A stretch of DNA of 64,000 nucleotides from a phage. The translations under genes and the position numbers were made by a program. The stretch's first letter is position 1. Each line of letters opens with the position of its first letter. The notes beneath the pieces are model-generated. The model did not search any database. It saw nothing but the letters and a program-made list of their open reading frames with translations, and was not told the origin of the DNA. The DNA is taken from sequence record OZ346167.1; one strand, 5' to 3'. Positions 1 through 30,721 of the stretch are shown here, one piece after another.

Positions 1-2213
1 CTTTTAAACTAGAAAGATTTGTCCAGATTGCTGGTAGCAGCATGACGGGTGACTTAGGAATTGTCAAGTTACTTTATGGTGGTAAGGCAGTATTTGACCC
101 TACAGGTTCTTCTGAGATTACTATGGGGGATGTTTTAAAGGCTTTTAAAATCAATGCAAATGGTCTTAAACTAACTATTGCAGATGCTTCAAGGTCTGCA
201 ACTGTTTATCATACTCTTAATAAGCCAAGTCCTAATGAACTTGGGATGAGAACTAATGAAGAGAATGATGCAAGATATGCAAGACTTGCTGTTACAAACT
301 CATTCCAAGCTAAACAGAGTGTCGTAGCAAATGGTGAGCAGTTGACACTGAAGACCCCTGCGGGTGCAAGTGAGGCATACTCTGCTATTGTAGGTCGAAA
401 TGCCAATAATGATAAAACTTGGGCTGTTGGGAATCTAACTCAAGGAAGTCTTGATGTTCATCTCGAAAACAGCAGAGGTTCAAGAATCACTCTAGGTGCA
501 ATTGTGTCTGTTAATAAGGCTCTTGCTATTACTGGACAGGTTCAACCTTCTGACTTCTCTAACTTAGATGCTAGATACTTTACTCAGACAGCAGCTAATC
601 AGAGATTTGCGCAGCTAGTTGGTAATAACACATTCAGTGGTTTAAACACATTCAACCAACTAAGTGTTTTCAAAAAAGATGGTGAAGCAATTAGGCTACA
701 GAATGCCAATGCTGCACAACCATTGTACATTAAGGCGATTGATAGCACAGGTGTCAACAGATGGTACATTGGTAATAGTAACGAAGGTGATAACGTAGCT
801 CTAGAAAACTACAAAACTAGTGGCAAGATTACTGTAGGGACAAGTGTTAATATCAATAAAACACTAACTGTAACTGGTCAAGTTCAACCTTCTGACTGGA
901 CTAACATTGACTCTCGTTATGTTCTTATCGGTTCATACGCAAATCTTGCTAAGAAGAATGAAGCTAACACATTCACTTTACAGCAGAATATTCAATCTGA
1001 TGGTGAAGCATTAAGAATCTACAGCAAGGCTCAGAATAATTCTTCTTACATTGTTGGTAAGAATACTGATAACACAAATAAGTGGTTTATCGGTTGTGGT
1101 ACTAATGGTTCTGGTACGGCATCATTCCATAACTACTTGACTGGTGCAAGACTCGATTTAGCTGACGAAATTCTTCTGTCTAAATCTCTACAGATTACTG
1201 GACAGGTAAAACCTTCTGATTGGTCTAACTTAGATGCTAGATACTTCACTCAGTCAGCAGCTAATCAGAGATTCATGGTTGCAGGTTCTACAGGAGAAGC
1301 TACAGAGCAGAATGCAGATGGTGTGGCATGGAACGCTAAAACAGGCTTATATAATGTAACATCACCAAATGGTGATTACACATCACTTGTATTTCAAATG
1401 TATCAGGGAGTGTCCTCTTCTACTGCCTGTGCGCAACTAAAGTTCCAGTATAAAAATGGTGGGATGTGGTACAGAACATCTGTAGACAGTAAAGGTTTTG
1501 AGGCTAAGTGGTCTAAGGTTTACACAGAGGCTCAGAAACCAACCCCTTCAGAGCTTGGTGCATACACTAAAGCTGAAACTGACCAGAAGATTGCACAGGC
1601 AGTAAGTGACTCTACAGACCTTAACAAAATCTACCCAGTAGGCATTGTAACGTGGTTTAACAGTAATGTTGACCCTAATACAGCACTGCCTGGCCTAACT
1701 TGGACGTATCTGAAGAATGGTGTTGGTAGGACTATTAGAATTGCAGCAGCAAATGGTTCAGATGTTGCTACAACTGGTGGTTCAGATTCTGTAACGTTAG
1801 CTGTTGGGAACTTGCCTTCACACACTCACAGTTTTTCTGCTACCACTTCATCTTTTGACTACGGAACAAAAAACACTAACACGACTGGTGCTCACACTCA
1901 CTCTGTAAGTGGCTCTACTTCATCTGCTGGTAACCACAACCATTCCATTTCGTGGATTGGTCAGAACTCTACACACTACTCTGGTGGTGGTGGTGGTAGT
2001 ATTGGTGTAGGACCGGGTTACACCGATGCTAACGGTGCTCACACCCACTCCGTAAGTGGTACTGCCGCTTCTGCTGGTAACCATGCTCACAGTGTTGGTA
2101 TTGGTGCTCACAGTCATACAGTAAGTGGTAACACTGGTGGTACAGGTTCTGGTTCAGCATTTAGTGTTACTAACCAGTTCTACAAGTTAATGGCTTGGGT
2201 GAGAACTGCTTAA
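1..2213 (+). CDS. Tail fiber protein, distal/receptor-binding type; ORF is open to the window edge so the 5' end may lie upstream
   Basis: 723-aa ORF (42..2213) with repeated ITGQVxPSDxSNLDxRY motifs and C-terminal HxH repeats (GAHTHSVSG, GNHNHS, GNHAHS) as in T4 gp37/gp12 fibers. Confidence 0.75.
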   Translation, partial: FKLERFVQIAGSSMTGDLGIVKLLYGGKAVFDPTGSSEITMGDVLKAFKINANGLKLTIADASRSATVYHTLNKPSPNELGMRTNEENDARYARLAVTNSFQAKQSVVANGEQLTLKTPAGASEAYSAIVGRNANNDKTWAVGNLTQGSLDVHLENSRGSRITLGAIVSVNKALAITGQVQPSDFSNLDARYFTQTAANQRFAQLVGNNTFSGLNTFNQLSVFKKDGEAIRLQNANAAQPLYIKAIDSTGVNRWYIGNSNEGDNVALENYKTSGKITVGTSVNINKTLTVTGQVQPSDWTNIDSRYVLIGSYANLAKKNEANTFTLQQNIQSDGEALRIYSKAQNNSSYIVGKNTDNTNKWFIGCGTNGSGTASFHNYLTGARLDLADEILLSKSLQITGQVKPSDWSNLDARYFTQSAANQRFMVAGSTGEATEQNADGVAWNAKTGLYNVTSPNGDYTSLVFQMYQGVSSSTACAQLKFQYKNGGMWYRTSVDSKGFEAKWSKVYTEAQKPTPSELGAYTKAETDQKIAQAVSDSTDLNKIYPVGIVTWFNSNVDPNTALPGLTWTYLKNGVGRTIRIAAANGSDVATTGGSDSVTLAVGNLPSHTHSFSATTSSFDYGTKNTNTTGAHTHSVSGSTSSAGNHNHSISWIGQNSTHYSGGGGGSIGVGPGYTDANGAHTHSVSGTAASAGNHAHSVGIGAHSHTVSGNTGGTGSGSAFSVTNQFYKLMAWVRTA

Positions 2214-2292
2214 TCCCTTGTTGACTGATTGTTAAGATGGTGTTAATATTCTTTATGGGTATTCTCACCATCTTGGCTGATGAGGTGATTAA

Positions 2293-2487
2293 ATGCCTAC
2301 AATCCTAGCAATTCTTCTAAAAAATCTAGGTAGCTTCTTCTGGAAACTCATTTTATCCCTTCTAAGTGAATACATGATTGAGAAAGTGTTCTTTAAGCTT
2401 GCAAGATACCTTGCGAGTAAGACAGACACACCTATTGATGATGAGTTCGTAGATAACTTAGAAAAAGCTTTTAAGGGGGAGAAATAA
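2293..2487 (+). CDS. Hypothetical small protein, hydrophobic N-terminus
   Basis: 64-aa ORF directly after the tail fiber gene. Confidence 0.4.
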   Translation: MPTILAILLKNLGSFFWKLILSLLSEYMIEKVFFKLARYLASKTDTPIDDEFVDNLEKAFKGEK

Positions 2488-2859
2488 ATGAAGTGGCTAG
2501 AGGAAGCTTTTAAAAATAATATTGGTGCAATTGTAGTTGGTATTTTTAGTGTTATTGGGATGTATACCACTATGCAAGTTTCAAGTGGTAAGCAAGAAGT
2601 GTCTGTCACAACAAAGTTACAGCAGCTAGATAATTATTCCAAAAGTAACTATTCAGCTATTCGTGAATTACAGTCTGACATGAGACTGATTCAGCTAGGG
2701 ATGGAGAACCAGAAAGTTCAGTTAGAGAATGTTAAGGGTGAAAACGCAAAACTTACCAAAACTCTTGATAAATTCTCTGACAGTGTGAATAATCTGGCTC
2801 AATCAGTATCAGCCCTCCAAGCTATTACTGAGAAGAACACAAAGAATACTGAAAAATAA
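2488..2859 (+). CDS. Hypothetical membrane-anchored coiled-coil protein
   Basis: 123-aa ORF, N-terminal hydrophobic segment, followed by terminator. Confidence 0.5.
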   Translation: MKWLEEAFKNNIGAIVVGIFSVIGMYTTMQVSSGKQEVSVTTKLQQLDNYSKSNYSAIRELQSDMRLIQLGMENQKVQLENVKGENAKLTKTLDKFSDSVNNLAQSVSALQAITEKNTKNTEK

Positions 2860-2865
2860 AATTTT

Positions 2866-2899
2866 AAGGCTCCTTTTGACGGGAGCCTTTTTTGTTTTT
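2866..2899. terminator. Rho-independent terminator between convergent genes
   Basis: AAGGCTCC-loop-GGGAGCCTT hairpin followed by T-run. Confidence 0.6.
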
Positions 2900-3797
2900 A
2901 CTTACCTACTGACAAAGGTGCTTCAATCTTTCCTGCATGTTTGTAGTTGTTGATGCCACCAATAAAGTCACTTGCAGTAAGATGTTTTAAGTCACTTAAA
3001 GTGTTAAGTGGTACACCAATCTCAAAAGTAGGTGCATGGAACTCTTCGTTGTTCATCAGTTCATAAACCTGCTTCATATGATTCTGATAAACCTGAGTAT
3101 CCCCAAAGACACCTATCAAGTATCGTGGAGTGTATCCAGTCATCTTACAAAGAACTTCCAGAATAAAACCGTAAGATGCAATATTAAACGGAAGTCCTAA
3201 AAAGGTGTCTACAGAACGCTGATACCATTGCAAATCTACTTCACCTTCGTTAGTGATATAAATCTGAAACAGAACATGACAAGGTGCTAAAGCCATCGAG
3301 TTTGCTGCAATATCTGCTGCATTCCAAGCATTAACAATCATGTAGCGGTCTGTGATATCACCCTTCATCTTCGTTACTAAGGTCTCTAACTGGTCTACAA
3401 CACAACCATTATGACCTTCAAAGTTTCTCCACTGAACCCCGTAGATTCTCCCACCTGCATCTTCTAACCAATCTTGTTCAGAGGAATAGTTAGAGCTTAA
3501 CCAGCGTTTAAAATCATCTGACCAGATAGTCCAGCGTTCTCCATCATTTTCACCCCAAGTACGGTAACGGAGTTCACCAAGTTTATTTTCACCATTCAGG
3601 AACCATAAAGCTTCCCCGATAACTTGCCGTGTAAACACCTGTTTAGATGTTAAGAGTGGGAAACCAGTTCGCATATCAAAACGAAACTGAGGTGGAGCAA
3701 ATGCAGAGATAACATCTCCAGTTCGTGTAGTACGCAGTTCACCAACGGATAAAACATGGTTCAGGATATTTTTGTAACTTGAATCTGCTTGTGACAT
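2898..3797 (-). CDS. thyA: Thymidylate synthase
   Basis: 299-aa ORF with ThyA active-site context MALAPCHVLFQ and conserved blocks. Confidence 0.9.
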   Translation of the reverse strand: MSQADSSYKNILNHVLSVGELRTTRTGDVISAFAPPQFRFDMRTGFPLLTSKQVFTRQVIGEALWFLNGENKLGELRYRTWGENDGERWTIWSDDFKRWLSSNYSSEQDWLEDAGGRIYGVQWRNFEGHNGCVVDQLETLVTKMKGDITDRYMIVNAWNAADIAANSMALAPCHVLFQIYITNEGEVDLQWYQRSVDTFLGLPFNIASYGFILEVLCKMTGYTPRYLIGVFGDTQVYQNHMKQVYELMNNEEFHAPTFEIGVPLNTLSDLKHLTASDFIGGINNYKHAGKIEAPLSVGK

Positions 3798-4344: not shown

Positions 4345-4601
4345 TTTGTAAACCCTTTCTTAATGAACCAGTTGATGACACTCTTCACAAATTTACTACG
4401 ATGGTAGATAAAATGTGGAGAGGGTTGGTATGAACCATAAGCCCAGAAAGCGATAATTTCATTACACCCTGTGCATCGGGTACTTTCTTCAGCAATATGA
4501 CCATTGACTATTTCACTTACCTCACCTTGTAAGTCTGTACACCCACAATGTGGACAACGGATAGGTGTTCCATCAGACTCATAGCAGTGTTCAATTTTCA
4601 T
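4341..4601 (-). CDS. Zinc-ribbon protein
   Basis: 86-aa ORF with CPHCGC...CTGC cysteine pairs. Confidence 0.5.
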   Translation of the reverse strand: MKIEHCYESDGTPIRCPHCGCTDLQGEVSEIVNGHIAEESTRCTGCNEIIAFWAYGSYQPSPHFIYHRSKFVKSVINWFIKKGFTK

Positions 4602-5117
4602 CTATTTAACCTCAAAAACTGGCTCAAGAACCAATATAAAGTCTACACAGTCATCTTCTTCATCCAGAATACCATCAAAGTTCTTAGGAACGAAGTCGAA
4701 GAGGCTCATAACAAAACAGTCAGAAGTGACCCTGATAGTTCCTCCCATGTTCTCTACAGTTAACACTGTACGACTTTCTTTTACCTCCCTCAGAAGATTA
4801 CTCACAAAGTCATCTAAGAAGTACTTCATCAATGACTTGAAACCTTTAGGGTAATCTGTACCAGAGTATGTTTCAATCTGTGGTACAAGCTTAACATTTA
4901 TACTAGTCTTTGTTAAGAACGTTTTAGAGAACATACTATCAGGTAACTTACAAATAGTCTTTCCAGTACCTTCATGTTCAATCTCAACAAAACCAGCTTC
5001 ATCGCCACACGTAACTATTTTAAAAGATGCTTCATTTTCATACTGTGAAGCCATAAACTTTTTAAGCATCTCTTTAAGGAAGTCTGCATGAGCATCTTGT
5101 AAGAAGATATCAATCAT
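4602..5117 (-). CDS. Hypothetical protein
   Basis: 171-aa ORF, tightly packed in operon. Confidence 0.55.
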   Translation of the reverse strand: MIDIFLQDAHADFLKEMLKKFMASQYENEASFKIVTCGDEAGFVEIEHEGTGKTICKLPDSMFSKTFLTKTSINVKLVPQIETYSGTDYPKGFKSLMKYFLDDFVSNLLREVKESRTVLTVENMGGTIRVTSDCFVMSLFDFVPKNFDGILDEEDDCVDFILVLEPVFEVK

Positions 5118-10465: not shown

Positions 10466-10736
10466 TACATCTGGTCAATACACTCGCAAGGTGTACCAGT
10501 TCTCTTATGAACTTCTCCGCATTTCTACGGAGTGTCGGACTATATCACGTAGTAGTAATACTACCGTTGCACTTGGGAATGGTCATTGGCTTACCACCCT
10601 ACTCTACTCAGTTCATACGTTAAGTATGCTTTTCGATAGTCTCTGAACGTTCCTCTTAAGAGGCTTCGCTGCTGATTACCATATCTTTACAGACTTAGGC
10701 TTCCAGCAATTCACAACGTTTTACATGCGCCACTGA
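10466..10736 (-). mobile_element. Group I intron (ORF-less, about 270 nt) splitting the DNA polymerase gene inside motif B; boundaries approximate
   Basis: stops in all frames; transcribed strand carries Q/R/S-like core elements AATCAGCAGC, GTTCAGAGACTA, GATATAGTCC. Confidence 0.7.
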
Positions 10737-12908
10737 CGCATAAATGCCATTTTTGGCTTTCTTACGACCTTTTGTAATCTCGTGGAGAAGTTCCTCATCC
10801 TGTGTCTCCCTACAACGAACAATATCTTCTTCCTTGTTCAGACCAAAGTAAATACTGTTCAGTGTATGCGCATCAGTCCCTGTGTAGACTTCATAGAGGT
10901 CGTTCTCAGCATCATAACGAAGATACTTGTCAGTTTCTGGATTAAGGTGCTTATCAAGATGTTTGCAATAATATCTCCCATCTTCTTGCTTGGTAAATTC
11001 TACTGACTCTTTACCTTCAGTTACTGCTTTAGTGAACTCTTTATCACCCATAAAGTTACACAGTAAAACAAGCTGTGCAGAGTTCTGGTCAACAGAAACA
11101 ATGTTAGTCCCCTCTTCACAAATCCACACTGCCCTCATAGGTGCTCCATAGACAGCAGCACCAGACGGTACGTTTACAATACCATATTGTGTCATACGTC
11201 CAGTTGAAGTACCAAACACCATTGCACCAGCACTAAGGCGACCATCAGGACGAATCTGGTTCAACCAACCTTTTTCATCATCCTTTGAGTTCTCAATAGT
11301 TCTGCGTCGGTGCATCAAAGTATAGTACTTAGCAATCTTCTGTCCAAGCTCACCTTCAATCGTATCATAAGATGATTCAGTAAGTTTTGGTGAAGTACGG
11401 ATTAAGCAAGGCTCAAGCAAGTCTGTGTATTTCTTCACAGACCAGTTATGCTCAATGTACTGTACACCTTCATGTTCAACATAACTCAAACCACACCGCT
11501 CAACCATTTCCTGCCACTTAGGATGCTTTGTAATCATCTTTTTATTGTCTTTGAAACGACAAACTTTGACAGGGCGACCATCTGAGTCTTTCTTGTAATT
11601 CCAGTCATCTGGAATCCAACCAACTGATTTCAAGTAGTCTTTAACAACTGCTACCTGAGTCATACGAGAAACTTCAAACTCAATTGGTGTATATGGTGCA
11701 TCAATCAAACCTGTGTAGCGACTTGACTCAAGTTCAAAGTGATTAACAACGTGGCTGTTATAGTACTTCACAGTTTTGACTGTTTTTACTGGCTTCCAGT
11801 CTTTGCATTTCTTACCAATCTTTGCGTTCAACTCATTGCAAATTGCACGAGCATCCTTCATTGCTACAAATCCCTCTTTGTACTCTTCACCAGTTACAGA
11901 GTTGGTTGGTGTATAGCAATTTCTCTTTTCAATGTTAAAAATCTTTGTAGTTGGCTTACCAAATGGCTTGATTTCATATGTCTGCATCTCACCGTTACGT
12001 ACCTGCTGACGATACTTTGTCTTAGGGTACTTGGTAATCCTCTTCAGCCCATCTGCATGACCGAATGCTTCAACATATTCATTCCAAGCTTTTGCAAACT
12101 CTTCTCCAGTAACTTTACCTTTGGTCTTAATAGTTGGAGGAAGATGTGGTTCAACCTCTGAAGCAAGCTCATTAGTCAACTTGTCAAGTTCCTTTACATG
12201 GAACTCCATAAGCTCTTTATCAGCTTTCCAACCATTGATAGCTTGCTGGCTCATCCAGAAAGATGTTTCTTTAGCTCGCATGTAGGTTTCATAAGTGTCT
12301 ATGCCACACTTCTTAAGCTTGAGATACTCGTTATCAAGTGCCCGTTTAGTTTTGGCGTTAATACGGATATCTTCTACGACACGAGTGAAGATTTCTGCAT
12401 TCCACACACCCCAATGCTCAATCTCTGGCTTACGAACACCAACACGAGCACCCCATGCAGCCAAACCATGAGCACCTTTATAACCCTTTGGAGTTGGCCT
12501 ATCCATCCACTGAACACGAGACTGGATAAGAGAATCCTGAAAGAAATTACCCCACGGCTTACATTTTGGATTATCAAAGTTCCATAAATCAGGTGCAATG
12601 TGATTGAAAACCCACCAGTCATAACCGAGACCATTATGGATGCAAAGACGTTTTGCCTTTAACGCAAATTCAACACCTTCACGTAAACCACCTTTGATGT
12701 ACTTAGTGTACTTGTGACCGAGGATAGGCTCATCTGTAAAGACCCATACAGGTGGCTCTTCATCGTCAGATTTATAGTCTGCAAAGGCCATTACGTGAAC
12801 TTTAGTGAACTCAAGGAGTAAACCATCAGTTTCTGTATCACCAACCAAATGTAAGTTTTTAAAATCTACGTTTTCCATTTTTACTCCCTCTAAAATCATT
12901 AACCTCAT
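10695..12908 (-). CDS. DNA polymerase (family A) with 3'-5' exonuclease domain, 5' exon (ORF runs into the intron; true exon probably ends near 10737)
   Basis: exonuclease motif VGDTETDG near N-terminus; ends ...RKKAKNGIYA at start of motif B. Confidence 0.85.
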   Translation of the reverse strand: MRLMILEGVKMENVDFKNLHLVGDTETDGLLLEFTKVHVMAFADYKSDDEEPPVWVFTDEPILGHKYTKYIKGGLREGVEFALKAKRLCIHNGLGYDWWVFNHIAPDLWNFDNPKCKPWGNFFQDSLIQSRVQWMDRPTPKGYKGAHGLAAWGARVGVRKPEIEHWGVWNAEIFTRVVEDIRINAKTKRALDNEYLKLKKCGIDTYETYMRAKETSFWMSQQAINGWKADKELMEFHVKELDKLTNELASEVEPHLPPTIKTKGKVTGEEFAKAWNEYVEAFGHADGLKRITKYPKTKYRQQVRNGEMQTYEIKPFGKPTTKIFNIEKRNCYTPTNSVTGEEYKEGFVAMKDARAICNELNAKIGKKCKDWKPVKTVKTVKYYNSHVVNHFELESSRYTGLIDAPYTPIEFEVSRMTQVAVVKDYLKSVGWIPDDWNYKKDSDGRPVKVCRFKDNKKMITKHPKWQEMVERCGLSYVEHEGVQYIEHNWSVKKYTDLLEPCLIRTSPKLTESSYDTIEGELGQKIAKYYTLMHRRRTIENSKDDEKGWLNQIRPDGRLSAGAMVFGTSTGRMTQYGIVNVPSGAAVYGAPMRAVWICEEGTNIVSVDQNSAQLVLLCNFMGDKEFTKAVTEGKESVEFTKQEDGRYYCKHLDKHLNPETDKYLRYDAENDLYEVYTGTDAHTLNSIYFGLNKEEDIVRCRETQDEELLHEITKGRKKAKNGIYASVAHVKRCELLEA

Positions 12909-24728: not shown

Positions 24729-24986
24729 ATGAAAGACTTAATAGAAAAACATGAGCGGCCTATATACTTGCTCCACAAGCCTCGGAAAACGATGTACTAT
24801 GTGAGTAGCACAGATATGATGATAAAACAAAATGATGACTCATGGGTTGCTGGTATCTCTTACATCTCTACAGCAGATGGTAAAATCTACGCAAGACCTT
24901 ATGAGATGTTTAACAAAGAAAACTGGGAAGTTTTAGACAGAAAACAAGCCCGAGAAATGATAAAGAAAGGAGAAATCACGCTATGA
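24729..24986 (+). CDS. Hypothetical small protein
   Basis: ATG with GGAGAG RBS between nrdA and nrdB. Confidence 0.45.
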   Translation: MKDLIEKHERPIYLLHKPRKTMYYVSSTDMMIKQNDDSWVAGISYISTADGKIYARPYEMFNKENWEVLDRKQAREMIKKGEITL

Positions 24987-26056
24987 TTAACCAGCACCCA
25001 ATCTTTTTAGGTGGTGAGAGAAAAACTTTTGACTCACTTAATAAACACTACCCAAAAATCTTTGAACTTTATAAACAACAAAAAGCACAAGACTGGTCAG
25101 AAGATGAGTTCCCTTTTGAACAATCACGTCTTGATTTTGAGAGTGTCCCAGCATCAATGTCAGGTGTAATGCTTGAGATTCTTAAGTGGCAATGGGAAGC
25201 AGACACTCAAGTTGCTAAGAGCTTGGCATTTGCCTTTGCACCTTTTATCTCTGATGACATCTATGCAACTGCAATTATGAAGCAGTCTGAGATTGAAAAC
25301 CTACATGCTCTTACTTACTCAGAGATTGTAAGGCAATGTATTAAAAACCCTGAAACAATCTTAGATGAGATTAACCAGAATGTTGCTGTGCAAGACCGAT
25401 TAAAAACTGTGAATCGTGTTCTTGAAGAATTACTGGATGAAGGTATAAACTATCGTCTGAGTTATGTTCGTGATTCACTTCTGGACAAAGACCCTTTACA
25501 CTTCCATAAAGTGATTCTGAAAGGGCTGTTTGCAGTGACTGCACTTGAAGGTATATCTTTTATGGCATCATTTGCATGTACTTTTGCACTTGATGCTCAA
25601 GATAAATTTCAGGGTATTGCTCAAGCGGTACAGAAAATTATGCTTGACGAAATCCTTCACACTAAAATTGATATTGAAGTTTTAAAAGAAACTTTAAGAG
25701 ATGATGAGTGGCAGAAAGCTTTTCAACAAATTCTTCCAGAGATTAAAGTAATCTTAGATGAAGTAGTTGAAAGTGAAGAGAAATGGTCGTATTATATCTT
25801 CTCCGAAGGACGTGCTGTAGTTGGCCTAAATACAAAGCTTCTTCATGAGTGGGTTTACTATAATGCTGCCCCATTGTATGATATGTTTGGCATTCCCAGA
25901 GATTTTGTAGCTCCTAAAGAACCACCTTTGAAGTATATGATTAAGAAGATGGAAATTGATAAAGAGCAGAATGCTAATCAGGAGCAACAGAACGGTGCGT
26001 ACCTATTGAATACTGTTGTAGATGATTTGAATAGTGGATTTTTAGAGGTTCCTTAA
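24983..26056 (+). CDS. nrdB: Ribonucleotide reductase class Ia small subunit
   Basis: 357-aa ORF immediately after nrdA. Confidence 0.85.
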   Translation: MINQHPIFLGGERKTFDSLNKHYPKIFELYKQQKAQDWSEDEFPFEQSRLDFESVPASMSGVMLEILKWQWEADTQVAKSLAFAFAPFISDDIYATAIMKQSEIENLHALTYSEIVRQCIKNPETILDEINQNVAVQDRLKTVNRVLEELLDEGINYRLSYVRDSLLDKDPLHFHKVILKGLFAVTALEGISFMASFACTFALDAQDKFQGIAQAVQKIMLDEILHTKIDIEVLKETLRDDEWQKAFQQILPEIKVILDEVVESEEKWSYYIFSEGRAVVGLNTKLLHEWVYYNAAPLYDMFGIPRDFVAPKEPPLKYMIKKMEIDKEQNANQEQQNGAYLLNTVVDDLNSGFLEVP

Positions 26057-26298: not shown

Positions 26299-26497
26299 AC
26301 GCCTTTGGGAAGGTTTGGTTGTTGATGCACCAGCTATTGTGATTGGTATGCTTATTGTTAACCTATTTACTGACTTTGAACAAGGTTCATTGTTTGGAGC
26401 TATGTTACTATGGGTTATCTTTGAAATATTAGAGATACAGTTAGGTATAACTGAAAAACTAAGAGAACTCTTTTCGAAGTTTTCTAAAAAGATTTAA
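26291..26497 (+). CDS. Small membrane protein
   Basis: 68-aa hydrophobic ORF. Confidence 0.45.
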   Translation: MLKRLWEGLVVDAPAIVIGMLIVNLFTDFEQGSLFGAMLLWVIFEILEIQLGITEKLRELFSKFSKKI

Positions 26498-26545
26498 AAT
26501 GAAAGGGTCTCTTCGGAGACCTTTTTAGCATGTAAAGGGGCAATA

Positions 26546-27745
26546 ATGAACAAAGTACAGATTATTAAAAAGAACGGCTCACTTGAAGAACCTGATATCA
26601 AAAAAGTTTTAGCAGCAGTCACAAAGTCAGCTAATAGGGTTGGGTATAAAGAACTCCCACCAGATGTTACCCAAGCTCTTGAGTCAGCATTTATGAGGAT
26701 TCTGGTAAAATCCACTAAGCAGAATAATTTACTCATTTCAGTAAATGATATTCACAGTATTGTTGAGGGTGCTTTGGCAGAAGTCAATCACGAGATTTAT
26801 GAGTCTTACTCAACATATAGAAATTACCGTAAAGAAGTTGCTCAAAATTGGGATGAACTCTACCAGAAGACCAAAGATACACTCTTCTTAGGTGACAGAG
26901 AGAATGCTAACTTTGACAGCAGTTTAATTTCTACAAAAGGTTCAATTATTCGTGGTTATCTGACTAAAGAAATCTTTAAACAGTACCATTTAACACCAGA
27001 GGAACTTGAAGCCATTGAAAAAGGGTTTATCTATATCCATGATTTAAGAGACCTAATTTTTGGTGGTATCAACTGTTGCCTGTTTGACATTGGTAAAGTC
27101 CTGAAAGGCGGCTTTGAAATGTCTGGCATCGAATATTGTGAACCAAAGTCTGTACTGTCGGCCTTACAGGTTATTGGTGACGTAGTTCTTTCAGCAACTG
27201 CACAGCAATTTGGTGGTTTTACTTTAGCAGAGATTGATAAGGTACTTGTACCGTATGCTAAGAAGTCTCTACGCTATCATGCTGAGAAAGCAGCATCTTA
27301 TGGTATTCCTAAAGAACATTACCACAATTATGTCATGGAGCAGCTACAGATTGAACTGACTCAAGGTTTCCAGTCACTTGAAATGAAGCTAAATACTGTA
27401 CCTTGTAGTCGTGGGGATTTTGCATTCACAACTTTGACATTCGGGTTACTTGACTCAGATATGTCCAATGAAGATAACCGACTGCAATATATGATTGCAA
27501 GTACTCTCCTAGATGTTCGTATGAATGGACAAGGTAAGAGCAAGAAGCCTGTTGTATTCCCTAAACTGGTTTATATCTATGACCAGAAGAGACACGATGA
27601 GAATATCTGTCAAGGACACCTGTACAGTAAAGCCATTGAGTGTTGCTCTAAAGCAATGTATCCAGATTTCTTAAGTGTATCTGGTCATGGTGCTGTAGCA
27701 GAAGCTTTTGAGCGTTCTGGCAAGGTAATTTCGCCGATGGGTTAA
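26546..27745 (+). CDS. nrdD: Anaerobic ribonucleotide reductase, 5' exon
   Basis: ATP-cone N-terminus; reading frame broken by intron after ...VISPMG. Confidence 0.85.
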   Translation: MNKVQIIKKNGSLEEPDIKKVLAAVTKSANRVGYKELPPDVTQALESAFMRILVKSTKQNNLLISVNDIHSIVEGALAEVNHEIYESYSTYRNYRKEVAQNWDELYQKTKDTLFLGDRENANFDSSLISTKGSIIRGYLTKEIFKQYHLTPEELEAIEKGFIYIHDLRDLIFGGINCCLFDIGKVLKGGFEMSGIEYCEPKSVLSALQVIGDVVLSATAQQFGGFTLAEIDKVLVPYAKKSLRYHAEKAASYGIPKEHYHNYVMEQLQIELTQGFQSLEMKLNTVPCSRGDFAFTTLTFGLLDSDMSNEDNRLQYMIASTLLDVRMNGQGKSKKPVVFPKLVYIYDQKRHDENICQGHLYSKAIECCSKAMYPDFLSVSGHGAVAEAFERSGKVISPMG

Positions 27746-28490
27746 CAGGCTCTATAGCTCATCTAAAACGTGCCTAAACAGGGAAACTCTACAGGTGTAG
27801 ACAATCCTGTGCTAAATGATGTACGATGTAAGAAACTATACAATATAGGAGTCTTACATGCCAAACTATCACGTCACTGAAGATGGAAAAGTCTTTAGGG
27901 AAAATGGTGTAGAGCTTACGCAGTGGAAATCCAACACTGGGTATATGAAAGTGAGGTTTTACGGTAAGAAGAATCGTGACATGTATGTCCACAGGTTAGT
28001 TGCTGAGAAATATGTACCTAACCCGAATAATCTTCCAATTGTAAAACATAAGGACGATAACAAACTAAATAACCACGCATCTAACTTAGAATGGGGTACT
28101 CATTCTGAGAATGCTAAAGAGGGTTATGAGAACGGATGTTACAAGTTCCACAAGCGTTCATATGCCGTGAAAGCCACACACAAAGTGACAAAGGAAGTTA
28201 TTGTTACTAAGTCAATACGAGAGTTGTCCAATATACTTGGACACAATCGCAAGACCATCTCTTCAATATTGAAGGGTGTAAAAGAGCATAATAACTTCGA
28301 ATATGAGTTTGAATACATCTAAATGCCGAACGACTAACCGTGATGAATGTAGCGGTGTAGGGTCAAGCGACTCGAAATGGTACGCTACTTAGAAATAAGT
28401 AGAAGATATAGTCTGGACTTACTGGCGACAGTAAGCAGCTTGAATAAAGCGGGGTAAGCTTAGCGAACTTACCTGAACAACAAGTGTAGA
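27746..28490 (+). mobile_element. Group I intron in nrdD carrying an HNH homing endonuclease ORF; boundaries approximate
   Basis: CTAAACAGGGAAACTCTACAGGTGTAGACAATCCTGTGCTAAAT resembles my recollection of the T4 td intron core; S-like AGATATAGTC in 3' part. Confidence 0.75.
27858..28322 (+). CDS. Intron-encoded HNH homing endonuclease
   Basis: HRLVAEKYVPNP...HKDDNKLNNHASNLEW HNH core. Confidence 0.75.
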   Translation: MPNYHVTEDGKVFRENGVELTQWKSNTGYMKVRFYGKKNRDMYVHRLVAEKYVPNPNNLPIVKHKDDNKLNNHASNLEWGTHSENAKEGYENGCYKFHKRSYAVKATHKVTKEVIVTKSIRELSNILGHNRKTISSILKGVKEHNNFEYEFEYI

Positions 28491-29432
28491 GCGTTTTTAT
28501 CACCATACCATAACGAATATGGTGAAGAGTTTTATGTAGGTCGTGCTAACATTGGTGCTGTATCTTTGAACTTACCAATGATTTACCAGTATTCTAAAGA
28601 GAATGGCTTAGATTTCTGGAAAGAGCTTGATAAGTACCTAGAAATGATTCGCAGCTTCCACAAGAAACGTTACGAAATGATTGCTAATATGCCAGCAAGT
28701 TCTAACCCTCTTGCATTCACACAGGGTGGTCTGTACAAAGGGAATAAGAAACCTACTGACAAGGTTGGCTGGGATATCGTGAAGTCCTTCACAGCTTCTT
28801 TTGGGGTTACTGCGCTTGATGAGCTATCTGTTCTTGCTGAAGGTAAACGACTTCATGAAGTTGGAAGCTGTAGTTTTGCATATGATGTTCTGGAATATAT
28901 CAACATGAAGACTGAAGAGTTTAAAAATGAAGATGGCTTCTTATATGCAGTCTATGGCACTCCAGCAGAATCACTTTGTGGAACTCAGCTAAAACAGTTC
29001 AGAGATATGTTTGGCGTTATCAAAGGCGTTTCTGACAAGGAATACTTTACAAACAGTTTCCATATGAATGTTGCAGCAGATATTACACCATTTGAGAAGC
29101 AGGACTTAGAAGAACCCTTCTTCCATATCTGTAGAGGCGGCAGAATCCAGTATGTAAGAGTGGCTAACCCAGAAAACTTATCAGCACTTAAGAGTTGTAT
29201 TACAAGAGGGATGTTGAAAGGTTTCTATCAGGGACTTAACTTTGACTTAGCAATCTGTGAACATTGTGGTAACAGACCAAAGGCTGATGTTGAAGAATGT
29301 GAGGTTTGTCATTCACACGATATCTCTGTGATTAACAGGGTGTGCGGATATTTGGGATGGACTAAGATTAAAGGTGAATCCCGAATGAATGATGCAAAAA
29401 TCGCTGAGATTCGTGACAGAATTTCTATGTAA
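28491..29432 (+). CDS. nrdD: Anaerobic ribonucleotide reductase, 3' exon (glycyl-radical domain)
   Basis: frame opens at 28491; GRANIGAVSLNLP block; C-terminal Zn site CEHCG..CEVCH and glycyl radical motif RVCGYLG. Confidence 0.85.
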   Translation, partial: AFLSPYHNEYGEEFYVGRANIGAVSLNLPMIYQYSKENGLDFWKELDKYLEMIRSFHKKRYEMIANMPASSNPLAFTQGGLYKGNKKPTDKVGWDIVKSFTASFGVTALDELSVLAEGKRLHEVGSCSFAYDVLEYINMKTEEFKNEDGFLYAVYGTPAESLCGTQLKQFRDMFGVIKGVSDKEYFTNSFHMNVAADITPFEKQDLEEPFFHICRGGRIQYVRVANPENLSALKSCITRGMLKGFYQGLNFDLAICEHCGNRPKADVEECEVCHSHDISVINRVCGYLGWTKIKGESRMNDAKIAEIRDRISM

Positions 29433-29433
29433 A

Positions 29434-29480
29434 ACTTGACAAGGTGATGTGGGTCTTGATAGGCTTACATCACCTTTTTA
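29434..29480 (+). terminator. Terminator hairpin overlapping conserved ACTTGACAAGGTG motif
   Basis: AGGTGATGTG..CATCACCT stem + TTTTTATTT. Confidence 0.55.
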
Positions 29481-29830
29481 TTTGGAGTTACATTATGGAC
29501 TTGTGGCTTTATGTAGCAGTTTGTGGGATTGTATGTCTGATAATCTTATTTATTCTTGGAATAATGCGATTTAGAGACATCATACAGTCAGATTTTTTGC
29601 CTGAGTTTACCATGATGGTTGGAGTTATTGCACTTTGTGTCTTGGCGGTGTTCTATTCATACAAAACTGTGATATGGATGAAGGCAAACAATTGTGTAAA
29701 AACTCATCAACATCGTGAGGTTACTTATTTTGTGAGTGTACTTAGTGGGAATACCACTGTACTTGTCCCACAAACTTCTGTAGAGTATCTTTACACATGT
29801 GATAATGGTAAAACTATATGGTGGAATTAA
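29444..29830 (+). CDS. Membrane protein
   Basis: 128 aa with multiple hydrophobic segments. Confidence 0.5.
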   Translation: MMWVLIGLHHLFIWSYIMDLWLYVAVCGIVCLIILFILGIMRFRDIIQSDFLPEFTMMVGVIALCVLAVFYSYKTVIWMKANNCVKTHQHREVTYFVSVLSGNTTVLVPQTSVEYLYTCDNGKTIWWN

Positions 29831-30033
29831 CAATGACAACAATCTTAAAGGTATTGACACCCATACTACACATAGTAATCTTCTTCTTTGGTGTTAGTGT
29901 TATGGTATGGGGTTTTTCAGACCCACAATGGAATTTCTCATATCATGGTAAGATGGATTTATGGTCATGCTTCAAACCATTTTTAGGGTTAGCTATAGCA
30001 TTCAGTGCATTACCAACTAAGGTGAGTTTATGA
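29818..30033 (+). CDS. Small membrane protein
   Basis: 71-aa hydrophobic ORF. Confidence 0.45.
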   Translation: MVELTMTTILKVLTPILHIVIFFFGVSVMVWGFSDPQWNFSYHGKMDLWSCFKPFLGLAIAFSALPTKVSL

Positions 30034-30425
30034 TTAAGTTGAACCAAAAACAGTTAGAGTGGATTAAAGATTACGCCTCAGAGTGTGGCTCTTGCGAAAA
30101 GAATCACGTAAGATACTCAACATTCCATACAACCTTCACATTGTATATTGGTGACAATGTTCTAAGTGATTCTGTAGAAGATGGTGTAGTATTGCCTAAT
30201 GAATTACTTGATAAACTAGCTGTAGTCTCTGGAACTTGGTCTGAAGAAGATGGTCACGAGCTGTCTGATGATGTTGTCTTCTACACCCTTGAAAACATCA
30301 TGAACCCAGAGTACATTATGCTAATGACTTGCGCACAAGATTGTGTACCATTACAAAACTTCATTAAAGAGCACTGTGAAGAATTTATTACTAAACAGGT
30401 TCCTTGTCAGGTGGTATTTGAATGA
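30030..30425 (+). CDS. Hypothetical protein
   Basis: 131-aa ORF. Confidence 0.5.
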   Translation: MIKLNQKQLEWIKDYASECGSCEKNHVRYSTFHTTFTLYIGDNVLSDSVEDGVVLPNELLDKLAVVSGTWSEEDGHELSDDVVFYTLENIMNPEYIMLMTCAQDCVPLQNFIKEHCEEFITKQVPCQVVFE

Positions 30426-30721
30426 GTAAAACAATTCGAAGAAAAGGTTTAAAGAACGTTCATGGACTTTATGAGTGGAGAAATGAGGTACGTAACAGAG
30501 AAAATGCTTCAGAGGTCTACTACCACTCTGATATGATGTCTAGAAAAGGTGGCTCTTACGACTTCACAAGCCAGCCTTGTAGAGAGATTAAGAAGGCTAC
30601 TAAACGTCTTACAAGAACACAAATAAGGCAGCTTTCTAAGACATCCTACTTAGATGAAGACTTTGACATTGATAGCAAGTCTCCAAAGAAAGCTGCTCAG
30701 AGCACTTATATGTATTGGTGA
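30422..30721 (+). CDS. Hypothetical protein
   Basis: 99-aa ORF. Confidence 0.5.
   Translation: MSKTIRRKGLKNVHGLYEWRNEVRNRENASEVYYHSDMMSRKGGSYDFTSQPCREIKKATKRLTRTQIRQLSKTSYLDEDFDIDSKSPKKAAQSTYMYW

Follow-up and report, generated by a model that had tools for sequence, protein, structure and literature searches.

Evidence for a mobile T4-like group I intron with an HNH homing endonuclease gene in the nrdD gene of a Felix O1-like phage

The td intron of phage T4, a member of the IA2 subgroup, carries its ORF in the P6a loop, with the 3' end of the ORF running into the 3' strand of P6a. The intron opens with an in-frame UAA that directly follows ...GGGU, and a hairpin covers the ribosome-binding site of its endonuclease. 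These features and the core architecture are shared by the intron described here; the two differ in their host gene, which for td is thymidylate synthase, in the P2 helix, present in td and absent here, and in their endonuclease, I-TevI being a GIY-YIG enzyme and the one found here an HNH enzyme. The intron of T4 nrdD (sunY) resides in the same host gene as ours, likewise lacks P2, has 70% core identity and contains an identical P1 guide, GCUCAU, facing the 5' exon AUGAGU in T4 and AUGGGU here. It differs in its I-TevII (GIY-YIG) ORF, located in the P9 region, and in its position about 110 codons upstream, within codon 180 and not at Gly289|Cys290. As SPMGC290R is intact in T4, we rejected the sunY site as the insertion site of our intron.

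In Felix O1-like phages, nrdD has been described as split by a homing endonuclease gene in the FSL SP phages and UAB_Phi87 (PMC3728262, PMC4837284), and a Felixounavirus paper mentions in passing "two introns" for phage SPJ41, identified in a non-coding RNA scan (PMC9951933). Our literature searches found no paper giving boundaries, fold, shared site or exon linkage. Here, we analyzed a stretch of 64,000 nucleotides of phage DNA (sequence record OZ346167.1; "the window") for which a reading of the letters without database searches, the sequence-only reading, had proposed that nrdD, the gene for the anaerobic ribonucleotide reductase, is interrupted by a group I intron carrying an HNH homing endonuclease. 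All tests that we ran agree with that proposal, and positions 27743..28484 (+ strand, as for all features below unless stated otherwise) very likely represent a mobile T4-like IA2 group I intron, with an HNH homing gene, in the nrdD of a Felix O1-like phage. The element is real but an ordinary mobile intron, already present in many sequenced relatives.

Judged by its sequence, the source of the window is a Felixounavirus (Felix O1-like myovirus, Ounavirinae). Over its full length, the nrdD region (26546..29432) was 97.7% identical to FSL SP-010 and SP-012, two Salmonella phages; for Mushroom, GEC_vB_B1 and further relatives, the figure was about 97%. In the GenBank records of these relatives, two nrdD CDSs flank a gene annotated as "HNH homing endonuclease." The upstream ORF (26546..27745) matched the Pfam ATP-cone and positions 1-250 of the NRDD profile, and the downstream frame matched NRDD positions 273-560 and the glycyl-radical domain. 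Exon 1 (26546..27742) thus consists of 399 codons with the ATP-cone and the N-terminal half of a class III ribonucleotide reductase (RNR) and ends in ...ATG GGT, its 3' end being set by the intron-less allele of phage FO1a; exon 2 (28485..29432), as defined by Pfam and the FO1a alignment, has 315 codons and a stop, begins with Cys400 and includes the glycyl-radical domain. In deposited genomes, the second nrdD CDS was started at TTG 28566 or nearby. A start at 28566 omits the first 27 codons of exon 2, the catalytic Cys included, and this late start is a systematic annotation error across the genus, seen in nearly all Felixounavirus genomes inspected. Farther downstream, between nrdD and nrdG, the window contains four small ORFs (29444..30721; 128, 71, 131 and 99 aa), and phage Mushroom has a free-standing NUMOD3 homing endonuclease at the equivalent place (4452..4952 of its extracted locus), making the spacer another variable spot.

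As the sequence-only reading had noted, the nrdD frame breaks after ...KVISPMG, the codon GGT (27740-27742) being followed by TAA (27743-27745). The boundaries that it gave for the insert, 27746-28490, turned out to be wrong. A 1,342-nt query consisting of the insert and 300 nt of exon per side was covered over exactly 600 nt in intron-less felixounaviruses, and the gap in the FO1a alignment was 27743..28484. As the FO1a allele lacks exactly these 742 nt, the intron begins at the TAA, 3 nt earlier than proposed, and exon 2 resumes not at 28491 but 6 nt earlier, at 28485, with TGT AGA (Cys-Arg); with the original coordinates, the protein would lose its catalytic Cys and the Arg that follows. 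The corrected element (27743..28484) is a 742-nt group I intron (IA2, T4-like), with the in-frame TAA first and the terminal G28484 last, as supported by its absence in intron-less felixounaviruses, by partial matches to the Rfam model RF00028 and by covariation. The corrected splice reads ...SPMG|CRAFLSPYHNEYGEEFYVGRANIG and gives a predicted protein of 714 aa, with the predicted ligated junction CCGAUGGGU|UGUAGAGCG (...AUGGGU|UGUAGA...). The spliced sequence ...SPMGCRAFLSP... matches SPMGC290RSFLS of T4 NrdD. Within the conserved active-site loop SPMG|CR, the insertion point separates the Gly codon from the Cys codon, and Cys400 is the counterpart of T4 NrdD Cys290, which we take to be the proposed thiyl-radical residue of class III reductases.

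The pairings at the two splice sites were read from the same sequence. P1 with the internal guide (27736..27763) joins the exon sequence GAUGGGU (27736-27742) to GCUCAUC (27757-27763), with all seven pairs formed in the window and U27742·G27757 at the 5' splice site. All seven pairs were also formed in 6 of the 7 relatives in our alignment (see below), the exception being T4 td, which is misaligned at P1; the U·G pair at the splice site was retained in seven of the eight aligned introns, with the misaligned td again as the exception, and compensatory changes in P1 were found in phiA047 and T4 nrdD. The P10 guide GCUCUAUA (27749-27756), adjoining the 5' side of the P1 strand, pairs 8/8 with UGUAGAGC of exon 2 (28485-28492). 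In Vibrio phage F97, the equivalent P10 is UUGGCA/UGCCGA, a different pair, showing that the guide follows its own exon. The last intron base, G28484, stands directly before exon 2, as fixed by the intron-less allele. Together, P1, P10 and the terminal G independently confirm the boundaries obtained from that allele.

For the ribozyme core, we aligned eight related introns with their ORFs removed (the window intron, the second nrdD intron of F97 and those of Vibrio phage 1.084.O, EPFV3, nieznany, T4 td, T4 nrdD and Aeromonas phage phiA047) on a hand-drawn structure consisting of P1, P3-P6, P6a, P7, P7.1, P7.2, P8, P9 and P9.2. In the window, the 5' half of the core (27769..27825) holds the 5' strand of P3 (27769-27774), P4 (27778-27782/27806-27810), P5 (27788-27792/27797-27801) and the 5' strands of P6 (27811-27812) and P6a (27818-27823). 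The 3' half (28314..28484) begins with P6a' (28314-28319), P6' (28325-28326), P7 (28332-28336/28409-28413), P7.1 (28337-28340/28353-28356) and P7.2 (28360-28373), and continues with P3' (28379-28384), P8 (28385-28402), P9 (28418-28435) and P9.2 (28453-28473) to the terminal G at 28484. Across the eight introns, 96.1% of the cells were standard pairs and 40 of the 65 pairs showed changes on both sides; none of 500 shuffles reached the observed values of pairing and covariation, and in controls in which the partner strand was shifted by 1-3 columns, 36-42% of the cells were paired. The conserved core helices P3-P9 were present, the P3/P7 pseudoknot included. While P7 was invariant, P3, P6a, P7.1 and P8 covaried at almost every position, with changes in all four pairs of P7.1 (ACCG/CGGT). 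The presence of P7.1 and P7.2 (GGGUC/GACUC) between P7 and P3' places the intron in the T4-like IA2 subgroup.

The 44-mer that the sequence-only reading had quoted as resembling the td core occurs once, at 27774..27817, within the 5' core half, and the td sequence that it had given for comparison is present exactly in T4 (positions 686-726 of the td locus as extracted). The resemblance itself also held up, the 3' half being about 71% identical to td and the ORF-deleted core 65%. As the window intron core is similarly close, 65-71% identical, to each of the seven other aligned introns, it is not especially close to td.

The Rfam search that had been suggested as a check gave a divided answer. 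A natural ORF-less allele, the 316-nt intron of phage EC6, the core of which matches that of the window in all but a few positions, scored 53.6 bits against RF00028 (cutoff 50), while the window copy went undetected at the gathering threshold. In E-value mode, the window copy gave two partial matches of 33.1 bits (28255..28435) and 15.5 bits (27778..27852), and its failure to reach the gathering score results from the 465-nt ORF in the P6a loop, which splits the model. The only group I intron found by the gathering-threshold scan of the whole window was a second one, in the family A DNA polymerase gene (10515..10798, - strand; RF00028, 64.2 bits), in agreement with the intron that the sequence-only reading had placed in the polymerase. 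The polymerase intron has no ORF in the source phage; at the same locus, some relatives are without the insert (about 80% query coverage) and some have a further 500-550 nt with an annotated endonuclease. The Rfam tRNA model located about 24 tRNA genes clustered at 57425..63551 (+), and weak sub-threshold tmRNA-like matches within the cluster are probably due to chance.

The 154-aa ORF in the P6a loop (27858..28322) encodes an HNH endonuclease of the I-HmuI type, as the sequence-only reading had proposed for its family: Pfam HNH_3 scored 41.2 bits against a cutoff of 24.8 (1.3e-10) and phrog_59 gave 1.3e-42. I-HmuI itself (PDB 1U3E) aligned over residues 3-152 (E = 3.7e-9). The predicted catalytic residues His64 and Asn76 were invariant in six homologs, and identity to the HNH ORFs of the same-site introns in other phages was 41-51%. 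The ATG is preceded, at a distance of 6 nt, by a good Shine-Dalgarno sequence (AGGAG), and a predicted hairpin (27826..27859; MFE -10.6 kcal/mol, z = -3.6) covers this AGGAG and the AU of the start codon. For EPFV3, nieznany, F97 and T4 I-TevI, a comparable hairpin was likewise predicted upstream of the ORF; in T4, such hairpins restrain endonuclease translation on early transcripts (PMC2988022). The hairpin at 27826-27859 is, by analogy, likely a translational brake on the HNH endonuclease. Scanning 26300..29600 for sigma-70 promoters and terminators, we found no convincing promoter or terminator inside the intron, the six promoter-like sites in the scanned interval comparing with 8.6 expected from shuffled sequence.

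Among the phages in the databases, about 95 had the intron and about 155 were without it at the same position. Of the carriers, about 60 had the ORF and about 34 an in-frame ORF deletion of 426 nt. The ORF-less copies (EC6, 601..916 of its extracted locus, and about 34 other records) go back to the ORF-bearing form through a single 426-nt in-frame deletion, the same in each, which keeps the HNH start codon and the last 10 codons, leaving MPNNFEYEFEYI*. In phage vB_SAg-RPN213, the intron appears to be shorter still, at about 292 nt. Felix O1, the type phage, has been reported to be without introns (PMC3185647), with which FO1a agrees. Four records labeled "Campylobacter phage" (MG065668, A126; MG065664, A132; MG065674, A140; MG065644, A147) contain a Felixounavirus/Vequintavirus-like nrdD intron at 97-99% identity and look like mislabeled or mixed assemblies.

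The presence of the intron is associated with the sequence of exon 2. Comparing seven intron-bearing and six intron-less Felixounavirus alleles, we found perfect linkage at three synonymous exon-2 positions, +3 (T vs C), +12 (T vs C) and +18 (A vs T/C), within a tract at 28485..28540; the last 90 nt of exon 1 contained no intron-linked position in these 13 alleles. The T at +3 completes P10. The intron-bearing phage SME50 turns into the intron-less type from +24 onward, indicating that tract ends vary among phages. The FO1a-type nrdD junction reads CCGATGGGT|TGCAGAGCTTTCTTATCT and the window-type spliced junction TGTAGAGCGTTTTTATCA. With 99 nt across the window's spliced junction as the query, 95 records matched at 90% identity or more and, among the matches listed, all contained the intron; 155 records matched below 90% (best 88.9%) and, again among the matches listed, it was absent in all. 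Among the matches listed from these approximately 250 records, none combined an intron-type flank with absence of the intron. Linkage of this kind is what homing with co-conversion, target-site immunity or both together are expected to leave, and its confinement to exon 2 is in line with the I-HmuI group, the enzymes of which nick in exon 2 (PMC3428280). Shared ancestry of the intron-bearing phages, rather than repeated homing, could explain part of the linkage. More speculatively, an exon-2 variant so fully linked to the intron may point to the HNH enzyme as a weapon of marker exclusion among co-infecting felixounaviruses.

Of the codon differences to FO1a in the exon sequence near the intron, 32 were synonymous and 4 non-synonymous; the ratios for other alleles were similar, and by this measure nrdD is still under purifying selection. 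The frame of exon 2 has a stop in the intron, seven codons upstream of the Cys codon, and its first ATG, GTG or TTG at 28566, 27 codons in, meaning that translation of exon 2 by itself cannot begin at the Cys codon. This argues strongly against an enzyme made of two polypeptides. Such an enzyme would arise if nrdD were truly split by a free-standing homing endonuclease and its two products assembled with no splicing, which is how one may read the GenBank annotation of two nrdD CDSs with an HNH gene and the genome papers, which report only an nrdD split by a homing endonuclease (PMC4837284); the NrdA/mobE arrangement of Aeromonas phage Aeh1 provides a precedent for a functional split RNR (PMC3653736). 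A split gene of the Aeh1 nrdA/mobE type should, however, have a start for each half and all essential residues covered, and we did not find this in the reading frames here: no start codon is available for the Cys codon (28485-28487) or for the 26 codons after it, which are nevertheless conserved at the protein level. In addition, the insert folds as a complete group I ribozyme with guides matching both exon ends. We consider a split enzyme very unlikely.

The exon-2 frame and the purifying selection together also argue strongly against a dead gene, that is, a decayed, non-splicing relic of an intron in an nrdD pseudogene, with deoxynucleotides supplied by the aerobic NrdAB encoded upstream. 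No helix is disrupted in the window, 94 phage records share a core of at least 95% identity, both exons are open and under purifying selection, and P1 and P10 still match the flanking exons perfectly. Weighed against this, the same phage does encode a class I RNR (nrdB, 24983..26056), the endonuclease ORF is gone from a third of the intron copies, which shows that the element can decay in part, and the splicing of the nrdD intron is inferred here from sequence comparison. On balance, the chances of a relic appear slim. Removal of the insert as an intein, or its bypass by the ribosome, is contradicted already by the reading frames, exon 1 being followed directly by TAA and several more in-frame stops. 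Inteins are known in phage RNR genes (PMC3653736), but the HNH ORF has a Shine-Dalgarno sequence and an ATG of its own and Pfam revealed no intein splicing motifs. As for bypass, the insert is, at 742 nt, far beyond any translational bypass gap known to us. We give this last explanation virtually no weight.

With a self-splicing intron as the preferred reading, events at the locus can be outlined. In the pre-mRNA, GCUCAUC would pair with the end of exon 1 to form P1 and GCUCUAUA with the start of exon 2 to form P10. Free guanosine in P7 would then attack after U27742 and exon 1 in turn after the terminal G28484, the product being an mRNA for the 714-aa NrdD, and ribosomes on unspliced RNA would be halted by the in-frame TAA with which the intron begins. 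At the DNA level, we infer cleavage by the HNH protein, along with its strand and site: in mixed infections, the enzyme probably nicks intron-less nrdD near the insertion site, on the exon-2 side, and repair from an intron-bearing genome would copy in the intron along with a little of exon 2, amounting to homing with co-conversion.

The practical value of the finding lies mostly in annotation, as an intron at 27743..28484 implies a single 714-aa NrdD. It adds another case in which a homing element targets the best-conserved codons of a gene for nucleotide metabolism. Elements of this kind are well known, and the present one leaves the current understanding of group I introns unchanged. The series of alleles (with ORF, ORF-deleted and intron-less), together with the one-sided exon variant, would make a convenient system for the study of homing and marker exclusion by an HNH nickase, and it sits in therapeutic Felix O1-like phages.

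Among known endonucleases, the comparison leads to I-HmuI and I-HmuII, along with I-BasI, of the DNA polymerase introns of SPO1-like phages. The window ORF has full-length similarity to I-HmuI and shares with this group an N-terminal HNH and a C-terminal helix-turn-helix/NUMOD-like tail; the group differs in its target, DNA polymerase and not nrdD, and the identity is low. Among introns, the same Gly|Cys site is occupied by intron and HNH units in at least five other phage lineages, represented by Vequintavirus EPFV3, Phapecoctavirus nieznany, the Vibrio phages F97 and 1.084.O, and two IMG/VR contigs. The nearest HNH relatives in IMG/VR (51% and 44% identity) are also located at the Gly|Cys site. 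The nrdD of F97 contains two introns, each with an HNH ORF (1..3300 of the extracted locus), and on one of the IMG/VR contigs (L027, 600..4200; the other is L030) there are three or more nrdD fragments along with two HNH ORFs. Given the 6-nt P1 guide common to both introns, one of the two nrdD sites, that of T4 or that found here, could have been colonized from the other by guide-directed ectopic insertion (reverse splicing), with the endonucleases, HNH and GIY-YIG, acquired later. The wider proposal, that the Gly|Cys introns and their HNH genes form a distinct, widespread and formally undescribed lineage, that the T4 site and the site found here were cross-colonized and that the HNH enzyme serves as a marker-exclusion weapon, is in our view speculative and rather unlikely to hold as a whole.

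The same-site units share with the window intron the insertion point ATGGGT | TGY CGN/AGA, the guide GCYCAU and an HNH ORF in the P6a loop, and their core RNA is 66-71% identical to it. They differ from it in the reach of the ORF, which in the relatives runs through P6 into P7 and ends ...EMPND*, whereas the window ORF ends sooner, at a TAA located in the internal loop of P6. The P10 guides of these units are different too, each matching its own exon 2.
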